The position numbers were made by a program, and so were the translations under genes. DNA of 64,000 nucleotides from an uncultured Candidatus Saccharibacteria bacterium (GTDB lineage: Bacteria; Patescibacteriota; Minisyncoccia; Phycocordibacterales; UBA9973): positions 5,435-69,434 of the forward strand of contig CAYYXE010000001.1 of NCBI GenBank assembly GCA_964475655.1, written 5' to 3'. Shown here one piece after another: positions 24,712 through 32,380 of the stretch; positions within the stretch are counted from its first letter, which is position 1, and each line of letters opens with the position of its first letter. A model generated the notes under the pieces. It was not told the DNA's origin. It was given only the letters and a program-made list of their open reading frames with translations, and ran no database searches.

Positions 24712-24954
24712 CTAGTGTGCGAGTTTGATCTTGAGATCTTTTTCAAATGCAGTGTCGATAATCCGTACTTTGTCTTCTAGATTAGCAATGCGGTTCTCAT
24801 GATTGTTAGAAAGTTTATTGAGTTCTTCGTGTACTCGGTCAAACTCGTTTTTGGTAGATTGAGCCAAGGTATCAACTGATACCGAGAGGTCTGCGATCAT
24901 GCGTGCAAGATCAGCATTAGTCACCTCTGTAGTTGTAGGCTTTTGGTCGCTCAT
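24712..24954 (-). CDS. small coiled-coil hypothetical protein (80 aa)
   Basis: Only the 3' third of the 186-aa ORF looks protein-like; start at MSDQKPTT. Confidence 0.4.
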   Translation of the reverse strand: MSDQKPTTTEVTNADLARMIADLSVSVDTLAQSTKNEFDRVHEELNKLSNNHENRIANLEDKVRIIDTAFEKDLKIKLAH

Positions 24955-25447
24955 GAAGCTATAGTATACCCGCGTCATACTGTCGCGCAACTGTATATAA
25001 AAGATGGAGCCCCTACATTGGTATGAGGGGCTTGGCGATGTGTACAGAGTACACGGGACGATGTTGAATTGTGATAAAGGTAAAGAAATGAAAGAACAAG
25101 GATAAGAAATAAGGGCAAAATGAATCGCGAATGATGGAGAAAGAGGTAGAAGGTATAGACAAATATTTGTATATACCACCCGCCTGCAAAAGCTATGCGT
25201 TAGCATTGCGGGCAGGGAGAAAAGAAAAGCTTCGCTGGCGTCGGATGTATAGAGATACTCCGAATGGTTCATTTATGAAGCACGCCGGTTTGAGACCTAA
25301 ATGGTGGTGTGTACAAAGTGATATAGAAATATCGAACCCTGTACCCTCAAAATAGTGTGTTCAATGGCCCTTGGCAAAGAACTAATGGAAGCAGAGAAAC
25401 TACCTACTTCCATCTTAGAGACGAAATACTTCCCTTTTTATTACATA

Positions 25448-25480
25448 TTGACAAATTCAAATTTGAAAGTACTATATAAT
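25448..25480 (+). promoter_or_regulatory. promoter TTGACA-16-TACTAT(ATAAT) for small membrane gene
   Basis: -35 25448-25453; extended TATATAAT at 25473-25480. Confidence 0.4.
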
Positions 25481-25493
25481 AAAACTTAGATTT

Positions 25494-25799
25494 ATGTATA
25501 TGTTCTTTATGTTCAGATTTGTATACAGAGTCATTATTCCAATCATCATTACATGTGTAACCGCAATTGAATTTTTCGATAAAAGAGCTACTACAGATAT
25601 TACAAAATATCCTGTTTTGGGTGAAAAAACTTTTGTATTATTTGTATTTATGACATTTTGGTCATGGATTCAAATGTCTATACTCAGTGATGAGGGTCAA
25701 GACGATAGAGTAAGAGCTCGCAATATAATAAAACTCATTTATTTTGTGGGCCTTATCGCAATGATTGTTGTTTGGAAAAATAATTTGTATATGTACTAA
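25494..25799 (+). CDS. hypothetical small membrane protein (AT-rich)
   Basis: 101 aa, 3 predicted TM segments. Confidence 0.45.
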   Translation: MYMFFMFRFVYRVIIPIIITCVTAIEFFDKRATTDITKYPVLGEKTFVLFVFMTFWSWIQMSILSDEGQDDRVRARNIIKLIYFVGLIAMIVVWKNNLYMY

Positions 25800-25800
25800 A

Positions 25801-25830
25801 ATCCCCCGTTTTGGACGGAGGATTTTTTTA
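25801..25830 (+). terminator. rho-independent terminator (TCCCCCGT...ACGGAGGA + T7)
   Basis: 8-bp stem (1 mismatch) + TTTTTTT; overlaps aspS stop on the other strand. Confidence 0.65.
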
Positions 25831-27264
25831 TTTCTTCTCTACTTTTTTGAGCACGATGTTGAGCTCGTCGAGTTGTTTTTGGGAGACTTCGCTTGGTGCG
25901 TGCATCATAGGGTCCTTCCCTTCTCCAGTTTTCGGGAATGCCATGACTTCGCGGATGTTGGGTTCGTCAAGGAGAAGCATCATGAGGCGGTCAAATCCCC
26001 ATGCGATGCCTCCGTGTGGAGGGGTGCCGGTCTTAAACGCCGTGAGCATGTGAGAGAAGTTTGCCTCAATGTCTTCCATACTATGACCGAGGATTTCAAA
26101 TACCTTTGCGAGTGCGTCATAGGTGTGATTGCGGATTGATCCCCCGCCGATCTCGTAGCCGTTGAGCACGATGTCGTACTGAGTCGTGAGGATAGATCCG
26201 ATATCTTTTTTGTTCATGAGGTTGTCCATATGCTCAGGGATGGGGCGAGAAAACGGGTTGTGTGTGTAGGTCCATGAACCAGTTGCATCAGGATTGTCAG
26301 ACTTACTGGTCTCTTCAAAAAATGGGAAATCTACTACCCAACAAAATGCGAGCGTGTTGGGATCGTTTTTGTCTTGACGAATGTCTGGTCGGTCAGTACC
26401 GTACTTGCTCATGGCATCGGCATATGAAATGCGTGGGAATGGGATTTGCTGGATCTTCTTTTCTGGGAAAAACTTCTGCACGATGTCGATCAGGAGCTTT
26501 TCGTTGACGTTCATCACATCATCACGGTCGACAAAGGAGAGTTCCATATCGAGCTGGGTGAACTCTGGCTGGCGATCACCGCGTCCGTCTTCGTCGCGCA
26601 TGCACTTGGCAAATTGGAAGTATCGTTCCACACCTGCGCTCATCAGGAGCTGCTTGTACTGCTGCGGAGACTGCGGGAGTGCATAAAACGTGCCTGGGTA
26701 GAGACGTGCAGGGACGATGTAGTCACGCGCACCTTCCGGAGTAGACTTGGTAAGGATGGGCGTTTCTACTTCGATAAATTTCTCTGCATGGAGTGCATTG
26801 CGCAAATGCTGTACTACGGTGTCGCGCATGCGCATGTTGCGTTGCATGCGAGCACTTCTGAGGTCAAGGTAGCGGTGTGCAAGGCGTACTTCTTCGCTCA
26901 CTTCTCGTGTGTCGACGTTGATCTCAAATGGAAGCGGCTCGGCGTAGTTGAGGATTTCGATACCAGTCACTTCAAGCTCGATGTCGCCGTTTTGTTTGTC
27001 AGCTTGCACATTGCGTTCGGGGCGCTTGTTCACGATGCCTTCTACTCGCACTACGGTCTCAGGACGCGCAGTCTTGGCTATCTCGATCACCTCAGGACGA
27101 TTGGGCAGCACGACGCCTTGAATGTAGCCAGTCATATCTCGGAAGTCAAAAAAGACCATTTTGCCCTGGTCGCGGCGGACGTCGATCCATCCTTTGATCA
27201 CTACTGTCTCCCCTGCTTTCGCTCCCAAATCGCTAATATATGTGCGCTCCATAGTGCTTTCCAT
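25828..27264 (-). CDS. aspS: aspartate--tRNA ligase, compact bacterial-type (no GAD insertion domain evident)
   Basis: Class II motifs FYALPQSPQQYKQLLM, FRDEDGRGDRQPEFTQLDME, GGIAWGFDRL; start at MESTMERTY (ORF upstream extension looks non-coding). Confidence 0.85.
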   Translation of the reverse strand: MESTMERTYISDLGAKAGETVVIKGWIDVRRDQGKMVFFDFRDMTGYIQGVVLPNRPEVIEIAKTARPETVVRVEGIVNKRPERNVQADKQNGDIELEVTGIEILNYAEPLPFEINVDTREVSEEVRLAHRYLDLRSARMQRNMRMRDTVVQHLRNALHAEKFIEVETPILTKSTPEGARDYIVPARLYPGTFYALPQSPQQYKQLLMSAGVERYFQFAKCMRDEDGRGDRQPEFTQLDMELSFVDRDDVMNVNEKLLIDIVQKFFPEKKIQQIPFPRISYADAMSKYGTDRPDIRQDKNDPNTLAFCWVVDFPFFEETSKSDNPDATGSWTYTHNPFSRPIPEHMDNLMNKKDIGSILTTQYDIVLNGYEIGGGSIRNHTYDALAKVFEILGHSMEDIEANFSHMLTAFKTGTPPHGGIAWGFDRLMMLLLDEPNIREVMAFPKTGEGKDPMMHAPSEVSQKQLDELNIVLKKVEKK

Positions 27265-27299
27265 AGTTTTTGCATTGTGCCATAAAATGAGGAATAAAA

Positions 27300-27327
27300 A
27301 AAGCCCCGCGGGATATCGGGGCCTAAC
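27300..27327 (-). terminator. hairpin GCCCCG...CGGGGC + U7 on minus strand, 35 nt upstream of aspS start
   Basis: 6-bp GC stem followed (minus strand) by TTTTTTT. Confidence 0.55.
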
Positions 27328-27356
27328 TACTGATGAATCAGTGGTTTGTAATGTTT

Positions 27357-27599
27357 TTACGCAATTTCTATTCGCCAAAATACCAAAATGCTTTTTACAA
27401 TAGCAATAAATTGTTTTGATGCACATTCTCTTTTTTCTTTGAAATGTGCAAAGTAAGATTCTTTTGCTATCGAAAGATTAGTTATATTTTTGGGGATCGA
27501 AACGTGCTCTCCTTCTGTTTGTGCTTTTTGGAGATCACGTATGGGGACACCGGTGGCGAGGTTGATGTCAGAGAGATTAAGATTTTGGAGTATGTTCAT
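27357..27599 (-). CDS. candidate small protein (80 aa) downstream of M16 peptidase; coding status uncertain
   Basis: ORF MNILQNLNLSDINLATGVPIRDLQKAQTE... bounded by two terminator hairpins; no obvious SD. Confidence 0.25.
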   Translation of the reverse strand: MNILQNLNLSDINLATGVPIRDLQKAQTEGEHVSIPKNITNLSIAKESYFAHFKEKRECASKQFIAIVKSILVFWRIEIA

Positions 27600-27651
27600 A
27601 AAGAGTTGGTTTTTTAAAAATATTACCACCCGTACATTTTTTGTCAAAAAA

Positions 27652-27671
27652 CCCGGGACTGTGTCCCGGGG
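27652..27671 (-). terminator. terminator hairpin CCCGGGAC/GTCCCGGG + U-tract immediately after M16 peptidase stop
   Basis: 8-bp perfect stem then TTTTTTG on minus strand. Confidence 0.65.
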
Positions 27672-27676
27672 ATACT

Positions 27677-28954
27677 TTAAAAATACTTTTCTGAACATTT
27701 TTTACCATTAACGATAATATGACAGTTATCGAGAGTAATATACTTTTTTAAAACTTCATGTATTTCTTCTGGACTTACGTTTTCCATAAAGTTATACCAA
27801 TCAGTGAAATCTTCTATCAAAGGGGTATCCTCAGGATATAAGTCAGAAAATTCATTTACAAAGTTTCTTGATGTTTGAATCTCTCGTATATCTGAAAACC
27901 ATTCCGTAACAAGTTTATCACGGTATTCTTTTTGAGATATTCCCTCTGAAAGAAGTTCTGTATAGCATTCAAAGATCGAATCAAGCAACAGGTCTGTTTT
28001 TTCGGGAGCAGTACCTGCAGTAGTCCCAGTGTACATCAAATGGTTAAGTGCAATTCTGGGAGAACCTAGACCATATACCAAGCCACGTTCATTCCGAAGT
28101 TTTTTGTAAAACCTTGAAGATAAACCGTCATGTGCATACTCTAGAGCAAATCTAAGAATAATACTCTCTCTCGAAGCTAAAACTGGTCCATCAAACCCAA
28201 CTACTACTCTTGTTTGCTCAAGATTCTGTTCAAGAAAAATTCTTGAACCCGAAGCAATCCGCTTGGGAGGGTCTGGGAGAAATTTTTTAATACCACACAA
28301 GAAATTGATATCTGAAAATGTTTTTTTGACATCGTCTACAGTACATCCACCAGCTATAACAAGTAGCATATTTTCAACAGTACAATGAGATCTAAAAAAA
28401 TTTTCAACGTTGATTGGCAACATAGCTACTATTGATTCTTTTGTACCCAAATTTGAATTACTCCAATTGGTACCATTTCCCCAAATAGACGCAAAAGAGA
28501 GACTTGAAATATACTCAGATTTCGAAAGATTTTGAAGTAACTCAGAAGTTATCACACCGATTTCTTTTTGATGTGACTGGGGAGTTATATATAATCCTGA
28601 CAAAGCTTCAGAGTAGTATTCTTTCATATTACTCATATGTTCAGGTATCGCCACTTCACATTCAATAGACATTTGGTCACGACCTGTGCGTGCGTTTGAG
28701 TGTCCACCGATTGAATCTATTATTCCTGCAAATGCTTCCTTTGTAGGATATTTGTTTGATCCAGATACAATAACGTGTTCTGTAAAGTGCGCCAGGCCAC
28801 TATCTCCATCATTAAATACAGATCCTGCACGCATGAGAATATTGGCAAAAATAGGACCGGAGGATCTTTGGATAAAAACAACCTTCAATCCATTTTCTAA
28901 TACGAGCTCGTGCTTCGTAACACCAAAATCATCGAGTGAATAGTTTCTTTTCAT
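27677..28954 (-). CDS. M16-family zinc peptidase (insulinase/pitrilysin-like)
   Basis: Inverted zinc motif HFTEH with downstream Glu; 425 aa; AT-rich. Confidence 0.75.
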   Translation of the reverse strand: MKRNYSLDDFGVTKHELVLENGLKVVFIQRSSGPIFANILMRAGSVFNDGDSGLAHFTEHVIVSGSNKYPTKEAFAGIIDSIGGHSNARTGRDQMSIECEVAIPEHMSNMKEYYSEALSGLYITPQSHQKEIGVITSELLQNLSKSEYISSLSFASIWGNGTNWSNSNLGTKESIVAMLPINVENFFRSHCTVENMLLVIAGGCTVDDVKKTFSDINFLCGIKKFLPDPPKRIASGSRIFLEQNLEQTRVVVGFDGPVLASRESIILRFALEYAHDGLSSRFYKKLRNERGLVYGLGSPRIALNHLMYTGTTAGTAPEKTDLLLDSIFECYTELLSEGISQKEYRDKLVTEWFSDIREIQTSRNFVNEFSDLYPEDTPLIEDFTDWYNFMENVSPEEIHEVLKKYITLDNCHIIVNGKKCSEKYF

Positions 28955-29022
28955 TATTTAAGTTTTTAACGTTTTACAAAATTGTTTATTAAAATAATAA
29001 CATAAATTTATTAAAAAGCAAA

Positions 29023-29601
29023 TTAAGATTTTTGGGCTATGAAATGAAACACATGCCAGTGTTTCGGGGTACCTACAGCAGTAGTTCCGTCTTTTTCTTC
29101 TTCTACAAATTCAATAAGTTCGAGATCTGACAGCATGTTTTGAGCTTCTTCTTTGGTTTGAAATGCAAGAGCTGCATCCGGTGTATTCCACTGGTCTCGA
29201 TCCCCAAATAATTGTCCAACAAATATCCCTTCTCGCTTTAGAGACACAACACAATTTTTCATAAATGCAGCAAAGCCGTCTTTTCCATAAAACGGAAGTG
29301 CGTATTGAGCATTAATAAGGTCATACGTATTGGGTACAAGTGTAAAATCTTGAAATGGTACATTTGCTAATGTAAATTTTGCAGAAGTAATACACATCGC
29401 AAATTCTTTGGATTGTGGTGAGCTATCGACTGCCGTCACCTGGTCAAAGCCTGCTTCCAAAAGATACTTTGATTCGATTAGTGTTCCGGCGCCAAGATCG
29501 AGAGCAGAGTTTCTATCTGGACAAATTTCAACAGCACGAACAAGTTGTTCTCGAGGCTTACGAGTTGCGTGTACTTTTGCGTATGTTTCCCAGTTTGCCA
29601 T
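29023..29601 (-). CDS. small class I SAM-dependent methyltransferase (TehB-like size/architecture)
   Basis: Motif I LDLGAGTL; acidic motif II VDSS; 192 aa. Confidence 0.7.
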   Translation of the reverse strand: MANWETYAKVHATRKPREQLVRAVEICPDRNSALDLGAGTLIESKYLLEAGFDQVTAVDSSPQSKEFAMCITSAKFTLANVPFQDFTLVPNTYDLINAQYALPFYGKDGFAAFMKNCVVSLKREGIFVGQLFGDRDQWNTPDAALAFQTKEEAQNMLSDLELIEFVEEEKDGTTAVGTPKHWHVFHFIAQKS

Positions 29602-29605
29602 ATGT

Positions 29606-31408
29606 TTACGCCATTAAGATCTGATTCTTAATCAATTTCTGATATTCTTTATTTTTCTTTTCAAGCTCAGCATGGGTTCCCTGTCCGACGATCTTACCTT
29701 CTGATACGACAAAGATAATATCAGCATCCATTACGGTGGAAAGTCGATGTGCAATGATAATCGTGGTGCGACCAGCTGCTGATCGGTTGATCGCATCATG
29801 GATGAGCTTCTCATTGATCGAGTCGAGTGCTGAGGTTGCCTCGTCAAAGATGAGGATCTTGGGGTCTTTGATAAGTGCTCGTGCGATGCCGATGCGTTGA
29901 CGTTCTCCACCTGAGACTTTGATACCACCTTCACCTATCACAGTGTCGAGTCCGTGATCTTTGAGCTTGACGACAAAGTCAGTAAGCGATGCATCCTCGA
30001 CTGCTTTTTGAAGTTTCTCTTCACTTACTTCTACCCCCGAAGGAATTCCAAACAATATGTTGTCTCTGATACTTCGGTCAAAGAGTTCAATCTTTTGTTC
30101 GACGTTGCCGATCTGAGAGCGAAGCCAGTGAAGGTCAAGCTCCTTGAGTGGCTCGCCATCAATCAAGATCTCACCTTCTGTGGCGTCATAATAGCGACGC
30201 ATAAGGTTTACGATAGTACTCTTGCCAGATCCAGATACACCGACAAATCCCACTTTTGCTCCGGGAGGGATTTTGAAACTTACCTCTGCAATCGTATGCT
30301 CAAGTTCATTTCCATCTGATTCTTCTTCATTTTCAATTTGCTGCGCTGATTGCCGGTATGGGTATGCGAAGCTTACCTTCTTGAATTCAATTTCACCTTT
30401 GAGCTCAGAGATAGTCTTGCCACCGATGTTGGGATTTATATCTGGTTCTATATCAAGAAGATCAAAATACTTTTTAATTTCAACTGTTTGGAACATTAGT
30501 CGACGCTGTGTATTCATAATATTATTGATATTGTCAAAAATTGATCCTGTCCATGCGTAAAATGTTACAAACATACCGACTGAGTGATATCCCTTAAAAA
30601 TAAAATAAATACCGACACCTAATGTTAGATATCTTCCGAGAAGAAGAATAATTTTGGAGCCATAGTATTCTTTTATATATGTGAGCCATGTTTTAATTGT
30701 AAAATCAGTAACTTTTTCGTACGCTATTTCGAAATCGCTCACTGTTTTATCTTCCTGTGCTTCTGCAATAACAAGCGTTGAATTTCTAAAAAGTTCTGAC
30801 TGCAACTTTGATTGCGATTGGTTCTTTTTACGCACTTCGTCCACTCGAGGGTAGTATCGAATATTTCGGTTGTATGCAATAAGTATGTGGAGCAATACAA
30901 ATATAAATGCTACTAATCCAGCTTTCCAATCAAATATAAAAAGAATGACAAATGTTACCAAAATCTGAATACCTGTTTGGAGCAGATCATAAATAAACAT
31001 ATTTACTGTATTGATCAGTGAATTCTGTCCTTTATTAACTATGGTCTGCTTCACACCTGAGTGTTCGTTGATGTGTTGACCTATCGAGAATTGAAACATT
31101 CTCTTGAGTGAGATCACAGAGAGTGCCTTATCGATATTTGCGTCGAGTTTTTTGATGTCAATGTATTCTTTGATATACCAGACAACCTGCTGCTGCAAAA
31201 TTGCAATGCCAAATGATGTGGCTAAAAAGATAATAGTGAGCCGAGCATCTCCTTTAATGATTGCATCAACACCCTTTCCAAATAAATATGGAGTAAATGT
31301 TGCAAATACCTGAACAATAGCAATTAAAGCTGCTGTAATAATGAAATATTTCCAAAAAGGTTTAAAAAATTGTATTGTTCTGTGCAAAAAACTTTTCTTT
31401 TTATTCAT
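29606..31408 (-). CDS. ABC exporter, fused permease + ATPase (type I exporter, MsbA/MdlB-like)
   Basis: 6-TM N-domain; Walker A GVSGSGKST, signature VSGGERQR, Walker B ILIFDEATSALD, H-loop IIAHRL. Confidence 0.85.
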   Translation of the reverse strand: MNKKKSFLHRTIQFFKPFWKYFIITAALIAIVQVFATFTPYLFGKGVDAIIKGDARLTIIFLATSFGIAILQQQVVWYIKEYIDIKKLDANIDKALSVISLKRMFQFSIGQHINEHSGVKQTIVNKGQNSLINTVNMFIYDLLQTGIQILVTFVILFIFDWKAGLVAFIFVLLHILIAYNRNIRYYPRVDEVRKKNQSQSKLQSELFRNSTLVIAEAQEDKTVSDFEIAYEKVTDFTIKTWLTYIKEYYGSKIILLLGRYLTLGVGIYFIFKGYHSVGMFVTFYAWTGSIFDNINNIMNTQRRLMFQTVEIKKYFDLLDIEPDINPNIGGKTISELKGEIEFKKVSFAYPYRQSAQQIENEEESDGNELEHTIAEVSFKIPPGAKVGFVGVSGSGKSTIVNLMRRYYDATEGEILIDGEPLKELDLHWLRSQIGNVEQKIELFDRSIRDNILFGIPSGVEVSEEKLQKAVEDASLTDFVVKLKDHGLDTVIGEGGIKVSGGERQRIGIARALIKDPKILIFDEATSALDSINEKLIHDAINRSAAGRTTIIIAHRLSTVMDADIIFVVSEGKIVGQGTHAELEKKNKEYQKLIKNQILMA

Positions 31409-31411
31409 GTT

Positions 31412-32380
31412 TTATTCTGTAAGCCCTACCACCTCATACACATCCGTCAGCTTCTTCATTGCGATCTCATTCGCCTTCATCGCGCCCTGAAGCAGTATTT
31501 CTTGTACAAGCTTGGGATCATCTTCATACTTTTTGCGGCGTTCGCGCATGGGGGTGACGAAGGAGATGATGTCCGCTATGAGCATCTTTTTGGCATCGCC
31601 ATAGCCGAGGCCTTGTCGATACTGCGATTTGAGTTCGTCAGATGAGTTGAAGAGTTTGTGGATCTGGTAGAGCACCATGTCGTCGGGGTTCTTTTCTTCA
31701 TCTTTGCCTCGAGAGTCAGTCGGGATACTCATGACAGCCTTTGTGATTTCCTCGTCAGTACCAAAGAGTGGAATCGTGTTGCTGTAACTTTTGCTCATCT
31801 TTTGTCCATCGGTACCGGGGACTGTCGCAACTTCTTCCATAATGAGTTCGTTTGGAAGTTTGAAAAGCTCAGCGTATTGGAAGTTGAACTTCCCTGCGAT
31901 GTCGCGCGTGTATTCGATGTGCTGCTTTTGGTCTTTGCCGACCGGTACGACGTCTGCATCGTAGAGCAAAATATCGGCAGACATGAGCACTGGGTAGTTG
32001 AAGAGTCCCATGCCTGGCTCGATGTCTTTGGCGACAGCGTCTTTGTAGGCATGCGCTCGCATCATAAATGGTACCGTGACGAGCGTATCAAATATCCAGG
32101 TGAGCTGCGTGTGTGCAGGCACGGCGGATTGCTTAAACAATGTCACCTTGGCAAGATCAAGGCCGATGCCGAGATAGTCGAGGACGAGATCATACGAGAG
32201 CTTCTTCATTTCCTCGGCGTCTTGGATGGTATTGAGCGCATGGAGATCTGCAAGAAAGATAAATGTTTCGTATTCATCCTGGAGATCGACAAATTGCTTC
32301 ATTGCGCCAAAGTAATTGCCGATATGCGGACGACCGGTTGGTTTGACACCTGAAACAAGGCGCTTTTTTGTGGAAGACAT
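31412..32380 (-). CDS. trpS: tryptophan--tRNA ligase
   Basis: HIGH-like PTGRPHIGNY and KMSKS motifs. Confidence 0.9.
   Translation of the reverse strand: MSSTKKRLVSGVKPTGRPHIGNYFGAMKQFVDLQDEYETFIFLADLHALNTIQDAEEMKKLSYDLVLDYLGIGLDLAKVTLFKQSAVPAHTQLTWIFDTLVTVPFMMRAHAYKDAVAKDIEPGMGLFNYPVLMSADILLYDADVVPVGKDQKQHIEYTRDIAGKFNFQYAELFKLPNELIMEEVATVPGTDGQKMSKSYSNTIPLFGTDEEITKAVMSIPTDSRGKDEEKNPDDMVLYQIHKLFNSSDELKSQYRQGLGYGDAKKMLIADIISFVTPMRERRKKYEDDPKLVQEILLQGAMKANEIAMKKLTDVYEVVGLTE

Follow-up and report, generated by a model that had tools for sequence, protein, structure and literature searches.

The 370-nt region between an M16 peptidase gene and aspS is probably a separate monocistronic unit, composed of a promoter, an 80-aa lineage-specific orphan gene and a terminator, and not a leader of aspS. 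Some real doubt attaches to this account, which taken as a whole is the best explanation that we can offer and in which neither of the two hairpins bounding the region would be an attenuator of aspS. The sequence elements, their pattern of conservation and the coding-like statistics of the small open reading frame were observed directly. The region is an ordinary feature and matters little beyond annotation.

Organization of the locus

The window, that is, the whole 64,000-nt stretch of DNA that was analysed, carries the genes concerned on its minus strand. They are trpS (31412-32380), an ABC exporter gene (29606-31408), a SAM methyltransferase gene (29023-29601), the gene of an M16 (insulinase-type) peptidase (27677..28954; Pfam Peptidase_M16 and Peptidase_M16_C) and aspS (25828..27264; Pfam tRNA-synt_2 and the OB anticodon-binding domain). 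The M16 gene is the final member of an ABC exporter/methyltransferase/protease cassette. An HFTEH motif was seen in its translation, and the methyltransferase gave a weak Pfam match to the N-terminal protein methyltransferase family PF05891. The spacer between the M16 gene and aspS, read in the minus-strand context, was taken as 27253-27676 (424 nt).

The base composition of this part of the window is uneven. The stretch from the ABC gene through the methyltransferase and M16 genes to the spacer is a low-GC island, with a GC content of 0.36-0.41 and a GC3 of 0.26-0.37; the core genes have a GC content of about 0.5 and a GC3 of 0.56-0.67, and aspS itself has a GC3 of 0.59. The nearest relatives of aspS, at 64-87% identity, all belong to metagenome-assembled Patescibacteria (Paceibacteria/Nomurabacteria-like).

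Predicted terminators and the unit between them

Two terminators, each a hairpin followed by a U-tract, had been reported in the first-pass annotation, and both were found in their places on the minus strand. Predicted intrinsic terminator 1 (27646..27670; stem CCCGGGAC/GTCCCGGG plus T6) consists of CCCGGGAC-aca-GTCCCGGG at 27670-27652 and T6 at 27651-27646. It begins 6 nt 3' of the M16 stop codon (27679-27677), and its 8-bp stem, 7 pairs of which are GC, has a folding energy of -15.1 kcal/mol. Predicted intrinsic terminator 2 (27296..27322; stem GCCCCG/CGGGGC plus T7) consists of GCCCCG-atatcccg-CGGGGC at 27322-27303 and T7 at 27302-27296, with a stem of 6-8 bp and a folding energy of -11.5 kcal/mol. 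Both hairpins are directional, the U-tract being present on the minus strand only, and both have the form of an intrinsic terminator, a GC-rich stem-loop with an immediate U-tract on the strand of the upstream gene. When the terminator-like sites in a 20-kb scan (38, vs. 18.2 +/- 4.3 in shuffles) were ranked by the number of G-C pairs in the stem, these two hairpins headed the list. The second hairpin had been placed about 35 nt before the aspS ATG; its position was correct, and the distance from the end of T7 is amended to 31 nt for the first ATG (27264, MEST-MERT...), the second ATG (27252) lying at 43 nt.

A sigma-70-like promoter was recognized by consensus match at 27620..27647 on the minus strand. 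It has TTGACA (27647-27642), a 16-nt spacer and TAATAT (27625-27620) with TGG ahead of it, as in an extended -10 element; 10 of the 12 positions agree with the consensus, and TG precedes the -10 box. The -35 box and the U-tract of terminator 1 overlap, and 20 nt lie between the -10 box and the ATG of the ORF. The 80-codon orphan ORF noted in the first-pass annotation exists and occupies 27357..27599 of the minus strand, stop codon included (MNILQNLNLSDINLATGVPIRDLQKAQTEGEHVSIPKNITNLSIAKESYFAHFKEKRECASKQFIAIVKSILVFWRIEIA); its product begins MNILQNLNLSD.... The stop codon is followed by 34 nt before the stem of terminator 2, and a small AU-rich hairpin (AACCACTGAT/ATCAGTAGTT, inverted repeat I10) lies in the predicted 3' UTR at 27325..27346, also on the minus strand. 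No MITE-like terminal repeats were found around the block.

The elements suggest the following order of events, in which the sites of transcription start and termination, as well as translation, are predicted from sequence. Hairpin 1 would terminate the M16 transcript or, in sister strains, the transcript of a ClpP-like gene. From the near-consensus promoter TTGACA-16-TGGTAATAT a transcript of about 320 nt would be made, which would have a leader of roughly 13 nt without a Shine-Dalgarno motif and would encode the 80-aa orphan protein. Hairpin 2 would terminate this mRNA, and aspS would then be transcribed from its own promoter, with CACAAT 16 nt past T7 and the ATG 9 nt past the -10 box.

The remark that the ORF has no Shine-Dalgarno sequence was true, as it is for the other starts: the motif was not seen upstream of any of the gene starts examined in the window (17/17), and its absence is therefore no evidence against the ORF. 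Sequences resembling a -10 box were found 6-9 nt before the ATGs of trpS, scpA, a lysS-like gene, a corA-like gene and aspS. Furthermore, the window has other joints of terminator, promoter and ATG, whose T-runs lie at 2033(+), 58018(-), 49532(-) and 44720(-), and before scpA.

The joint upstream of aspS

The -10 region assigned to aspS, TGG-CACAAT, is located at 27274..27282 on the minus strand, exactly 16 nt past T7, and the ATG at 27264 follows after another 9 nt. In the 27 closest species, the 150 nt that precede aspS were compared. The joint, comprising a GC hairpin, T7, exactly 16 nt and a -10-like hexamer, was present in the window and in 16 of these 27. The hexamer is TAGAAT, CACAAT or TAAAAT, and the ATG usually follows after 9 nt. 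T7 is invariant and the stem sequence is variable (GCCCCG, GCCCGG, GCCCTGTC, GCCTTAGATATC and others); since the arms differ between species yet still pair, the pairing has been kept by changes on both arms. Species that have no T7 hairpin still keep TAGAAT, 9 nt and ATG before aspS.

The gene that precedes the joint is not constant. It is an ABC exporter gene in L032 and L027, a ClpP-like gene in L016 and L021, and another orphan ORF in L028 and L014, and in several species the hairpin is found 5-25 nt past the stop codon of the upstream gene. The first-pass annotation had proposed that conservation of the ORF be weighed against conservation of the structure at homologous loci. The outcome was divided. 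The position of hairpin 2 was kept in the 16 species, while no homologue of the ORF was detected in 80 related species by tblastn, nhmmer or blastn of the ORF or the block, and the only part of the block that was conserved across the 80-species search was the last ~52 nt, which is the aspS promoter joint. Because the joint is conserved whatever gene lies upstream and the ORF is undetected in the 80 species, hairpin 2 is taken to end the upstream unit. It would serve as the terminator of whatever gene lies there and would insulate the aspS promoter.

The comparison places the putative aspS promoter between hairpin 2 and the ATG, and the aspS mRNA would be essentially leaderless, so that hairpin 2 would lie outside it. 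Sister strains have a 12-nt deletion by which the MERT ATG comes to lie exactly 9 nt from the -10 box. That these strains retain the 9-nt spacing speaks for the assigned promoter as well as for a start at 27264, and the first ATG (27264, MEST-MERTYISD...) is probably the aspS start.

A cis-regulatory leader of aspS, whether T-box-like, a leader peptide or another attenuator, in which hairpin 2 would be the terminator under regulation, had been suggested by the presence of a strong terminator 31 nt ahead of the start of an aminoacyl-tRNA synthetase gene. This idea now seems barely credible. A covariance-model scan had been recommended as a check, and it yielded nothing relevant in the region or in the whole window. 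Neither a T-box nor a riboswitch was returned by cmscan of 26900-28000 at E <= 10, and no Rfam family matched the region at E < 0.3. The top match was Phe_leader, at 23.2 bits vs. a gathering score of 55 (E = 0.33), and the terminator alone aligns. At the gathering threshold the whole window gave tRNA-Ile only. The statement that the spacer has no T-box box was confirmed, as the motif AGGGTGGNACCGCG had no match in 27253-27676 even with up to 3 mismatches; elsewhere in the window it matched 10 times vs. a chance expectation of 10.1. The positional evidence likewise speaks against a leader. The conserved -10 box is downstream of hairpin 2, the same joint is found in species that do not have the 370-nt region, including places where the hairpin directly abuts the upstream stop codon and leaves no room for a leader, and joints of this type are generic in this genome. 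The T-box class was rejected on the combined absence of a covariance-model match and of the motif and on the promoter being placed after the terminator by comparison. A leader-peptide attenuator was also rejected, since only 2 of the 80 codons of the sole ORF encode Asp and they form no run.

Coding potential of the 80-aa ORF

The length of the ORF is mildly unusual. When the 424-nt spacer was shuffled 5,000 times with its dinucleotides preserved, 4% of the shuffles contained an ATG-initiated ORF of at least 80 codons (P = 0.04). The codon usage is more distinctive. Scored with the usage of the island genes, the ORF had a per-codon log-odds of 0.215 vs. 0.204 +/- 0.055 for in-frame windows of the island genes, and none of the other five frames exceeded 0.025. 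The value of the ORF was not reached by any of 1,680 random ORFs of at least 50 codons, drawn from dinucleotide shuffles of the spacer (mean -0.007, sd 0.065), or by any off-frame window of real genes. The GC content by codon position is 0.46/0.31/0.31. The overall GC of 0.36 and the GC3 of 0.31 match the island genes and are unlike aspS, and were counted as evidence for coding. Moreover, gene callers in public assemblies also predicted the ORF.

Its own predicted promoter and terminator, together with the island-like codon usage, indicate that the small ORF is probably a gene. Several observations weigh against this view. It is without evolutionary depth, the 11 loci providing only two alleles (K37/Q37) and one SNP in the promoter spacer; searches of proteins, viral contigs and metagenome contigs gave no homologue; the AlphaFold model is of low confidence; the transcript body folds better than shuffles, which leaves room for an RNA function; and the promoter and the terminators were recognized solely by their agreement with a consensus.

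Searches for relatives and alternative origins of the ORF

No family match for the ORF was obtained with Pfam, PHROG, NCBIfam or PADLOC, and searches of 5.8 billion clustered proteins and of 1.84 billion representatives returned no relative other than itself. Back-translated peptides of the ORF gave no match in metagenome or viral contigs, nor did the hairpin-1/promoter DNA in metagenome contigs. The structure predicted by AlphaFold from the single sequence had a pLDDT of 58.7, too low for a fold search.

The sole PDB match, obtained with phmmer at E = 0.24-0.74, was to the helix-turn-helix region of the TetR-family regulator 3nrg_A. Residues 25-60 of the ORF product align in register with residues 26-61 of 3nrg_A ('IAKESYFAHFKEKRE' vs. 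'IAKGSFYQYFADKKD'). A TetR_N profile, our own build from 120 PF00440 database proteins, scored 2.9 bits against the ORF with an empirical P of 0.033, and hhalign of TetR against the ORF gave P = 0.032 at a probability of 1.6%. The Pfam TetR_N model did not match the ORF at E <= 10. Membership of the TetR family was rejected, as the similarity is not significant (P about 0.03) and the C-terminal ligand-binding/dimerization domain of ~150 aa is lacking. The TetR-like motif may be treated as a lead only. Our best guess, weakly held, is that the ORF would encode a small helical cytoplasmic protein that possibly binds DNA.

Consideration was given to the possibility that the unit is transcribed into a small RNA of about 320 nt, either non-coding or with a dual function, and that the 80-codon frame is incidental. 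Such an RNA would account for a unit with its own promoter and terminator, for the failure to find protein homologues among the 5.8 billion clustered proteins and 1.84 billion representatives, and for the only SNP within the ORF being non-synonymous. The body of the transcript without the terminators folds better than shuffled sequences (z = -2.64, with 2/200 shuffles as good), and with the terminator included the z value is -3.45; helices are predicted at about 27370-27480. However, the codon usage and positional GC of the ORF fit the island genes and are better than those of random ORFs and of the other frames, 96% of shuffles have a shorter open frame, and no Rfam family matched. On this evidence an RNA function is decidedly unlikely. 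It was also considered that the ORF is a decaying, non-functional remnant of a cargo gene; it might, for example, be the DNA-binding N-terminus of a TetR-type regulator that once controlled the ABC exporter. The remnant would have kept its own promoter and become fused to the terminator before aspS. TetR regulators commonly adjoin exporters, and the only PDB match of the ORF is the in-register TetR helix-turn-helix; in addition, the slot is a site of gene turnover, and a recent fragment would retain its codon-usage signal. However, neither the profile (P = 0.033) nor hhalign (P = 0.032) gave a significant TetR similarity, the 34 nt between the stop codon and the terminator stem are too little for a remnant of the C-terminal domain, and no parent family was detectable among the 1.84 billion representatives. 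A relic of this kind is accordingly rated as unlikely, with a small but tangible chance.

The variable island between trpS and aspS

The trpS and aspS genes are adjacent in distant Paceibacteria. In closer relatives the interval contains an ABC gene; two ABC genes; ABC, methyltransferase and M16 genes; or ABC, methyltransferase and ClpP-like genes. The slot immediately before aspS is taken elsewhere by a 94-aa ORF (L028), a 197-aa ORF (L014) or nothing, and in L012 and L024 by the gene of a reprolysin-like lipoprotein of about 400 aa. Terminator-promoter joints of one kind flank the cargo units that were read at both ends, namely those of the window, L014 and L028. Judged by these gene contents, the trpS-aspS interval is a variable island.

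The 80-aa ORF was found only in very close strains (L001-L010 and L091), always before aspS. The block is 99.5-100% identical in all ORF-bearing strains, and the flanks are 76-95% identical. Across the 11 loci the block has two SNPs, at 27632 in the promoter spacer and at 27491; the latter, K37Q, is non-synonymous and is the sole SNP internal to the ORF, for which no diverged homologue was found. The near-identity might be taken to mark the block as an island of conservation, but this was dismissed because the divergence of the population is mosaic, as illustrated by the window and L010, which have 0 SNPs over 4 kb beside patches of about 15% divergence. With a shared clonal frame and mosaic divergence, the identity of the block reflects shared ancestry and not constraint.

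The other suggestion of the first-pass annotation was a small precursor-like peptide gene belonging to the upstream cassette. The gene part of this claim is probably right, given the predicted promoter and terminator and the codon usage, while the link to the cassette fared badly. In such a scheme the product would be handled like a RiPP or bacteriocin: the M16 peptidase would cleave it, the methyltransferase would methylate it and the ABC transporter would export it. It has in its favor a small ORF with a strong promoter and terminator right after a protease/methyltransferase/ABC-exporter set, the same low GC in the ORF and the cassette genes, and the weak match of the methyltransferase to PF05891. 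However, the identical ORF adjoins two non-orthologous cassettes, one of the M16 type and one of the ClpP type, with methyltransferases that are 33% identical, and the sequence identity between strains of the two types begins exactly at hairpin 1. No homologue of the ORF is present at the orthologous cassettes of L016, L021, L014, L012 and L017, the first two of which have no small ORF of any kind at this place. On direct reading, the ORF sequence shows no double-glycine (GG/GA) leader, signal peptide or Cys/Ser/Thr-rich core, and the ABC exporter has no Pfam peptidase domain. The exchange of cassettes beside an unchanged ORF, together with orthologous cassettes that lack it, makes the role of precursor peptide very improbable. 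A further possibility is that the slot upstream of aspS, beside an exchangeable cassette, is a conserved site of acquisition or birth of orphan genes, and that each Paceibacteria lineage has its own family-less ORF there (80 aa in the window, 94 aa in L028, 197 aa in L014). The ORF product would then be a genuinely new, lineage-specific small protein, which might bind DNA as a minimal regulator or be a client of the cassette. This proposal is speculative, and we regard it as unlikely to be correct in full. The separate monocistronic unit remains our preferred explanation of the region.

Comparison with known systems

The small unit bears some resemblance to the phage 'morons' of Hendrix and colleagues, which are reportedly independent promoter-gene-terminator units inserted between two genes. 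It too has its own predicted promoter and factor-independent terminator and separates two genes that would otherwise be neighbors; in composition it is unlike the core gene beside it (GC3 0.31 vs. 0.59 for aspS); and it is present in some relatives and absent from others, with a small predicted protein product of no assigned family. By sequence, the features of a moron-like cassette, namely a promoter and terminator of its own, presence or absence among relatives and a composition unlike that of the core, are all found. Unlike morons, the unit is located in a chromosomal island and not in a prophage, with no phage genes nearby, no PHROG match and no match in viral contigs, and its GC content equals that of the neighboring island genes.

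The locus shares with T-box and other aminoacyl-tRNA synthetase attenuators a strong intrinsic terminator just upstream of the start codon of the synthetase gene. It differs from T-box leaders in that the aspS promoter appears to follow hairpin 2 and in having neither the covariance-model match nor the motif. The resemblance to TetR regulators is limited to the weak in-register similarity of residues 25-60 and to the location beside a cassette with an ABC exporter; the ORF has 80 aa compared with about 200 for these regulators, and there is no Pfam match.

Gene organization with leaderless mRNAs has been described, for example, in mycobacteria (PMC3898074, PMC4633059) and has been modelled in GeneMarkS-2 (PMC6028130). 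The arrangement of aspS, trpS, scpA and other genes of the window, with a -10 box 6-9 nt before the ATG and no Shine-Dalgarno motif, is similar. The small ORF departs from this pattern; the distance of 20 nt from its -10 box to the ATG would give a short leader that lacks a Shine-Dalgarno motif.

The analysis removes a candidate aminoacyl-tRNA synthetase riboswitch or attenuator from a candidate-phyla-radiation genome and likely corrects the aspS start to 27264. In these genomes a terminator, a promoter and a leaderless start codon would be packed within about 40 nt, and with such packing the nearness of a terminator to a start codon should not be taken here as the sign of an attenuator. For the study of gene turnover in Patescibacteria, the orphan ORF and the variable island between trpS and aspS offer modest starting points.

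Gene turnover between trpS and aspS

The interval between trpS and aspS (window 27253-32380) was compared with the related loci L011-L090. In distant species aspS directly adjoins trpS. The insertions found between the two genes in closer relatives comprise one or more ABC exporters, a methyltransferase and an M16 or ClpP-like protease, and further insertions carry a reprolysin-like lipoprotein and orphan ORFs. Across Paceibacteria, the trpS-aspS interval is a gene-turnover hot spot.

The same region differs within a set of very close strains. In one of these, L002, the dnaB, trpS and ABC exporter genes are 98-100% identical to those of the window, whereas the methyltransferase and M16 protease of the window (27677-29601) are replaced by a different methyltransferase and a ClpP-like protease (L002 4680-5921). 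The methyltransferases share 33% amino acid identity, and the junction of the swap lies between the stop codon and the first hairpin (27670-27652). The difference is a cassette exchange inside one population.

The position between the cassette and aspS, occupied in the window by an 80-codon orphan ORF (27357-27599, minus strand), has other occupants in related loci. A 94-aa ORF in L028 (5654-5938) and a 197-aa ORF in L014 (4822-5415) are unrelated ORFs that belong to no Pfam family, and both are flanked by similar joints of hairpin, T run and promoter.

Structure prediction places a long, imperfectly paired hairpin inside the 80-codon ORF (27370-27480, minus strand; GCACAUU.../...AAUGUGC, with flanks AUAGCAA/UUGCUAU), and the body of the ORF transcript folds better than shuffled sequences (z = -2.64). 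Residues 25-60 (window 27424-27525) show a weak, in-register likeness to the helix-turn-helix signature of the TetR family, the ORF stretch 'IAKESYFAHFKEKRE' aligning with 'IAKGSFYQYFADKKD' of the TetR-family regulator 3nrg_A. When tested with profiles, this resemblance did not reach significance (P about 0.03).

Promoter joint and start of aspS

A conserved joint precedes aspS in the window (27250-27302) and in 16 of the 27 closest related species checked. It consists of a hairpin, T7, 16 nt, TAGAAT or CACAAT, 9 nt and the ATG, and is predicted to be a leaderless promoter. Conservation of the joint implies that aspS starts at 27264 (MEST-MERT...) rather than at 27252. A 12-nt deletion in sister strains keeps the 9-nt spacing before the aspS ATG.

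No Shine-Dalgarno motif was seen upstream of any of the 17 gene starts examined in the window. Many ATGs have a -10-like box 6-9 nt upstream, and predicted terminators throughout the window are often fused to the next predicted promoter; examples lie upstream of 32380, 24676, 42851, 34948, 58018 and 44720. Together, these three features suggest that leaderless or short-leader mRNAs are widespread in this genome.

Mosaic divergence around aspS and trpS

A mosaic patch lies within aspS (26100-27150): here the difference between the window and the very close strains L003 and L010 is about 15% per 200 nt, against 0 SNPs over 27700-31620, which suggests that the aspS patch was imported by recombination. 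In L005 and L008, trpS is only 77% identical although dnaB is 100% identical.

The region 3' of aspS (window 24712-25830) has a low GC content (0.38), and its odd ORFs include a low-complexity one of 186 aa (24712-25272, minus strand) and a hydrophobic one of 101 aa (25494-25799, plus strand). It differs among strains, with a GGACT-domain gene present there in L001, and a patch at 25100-25500 is divergent between the window and L003.
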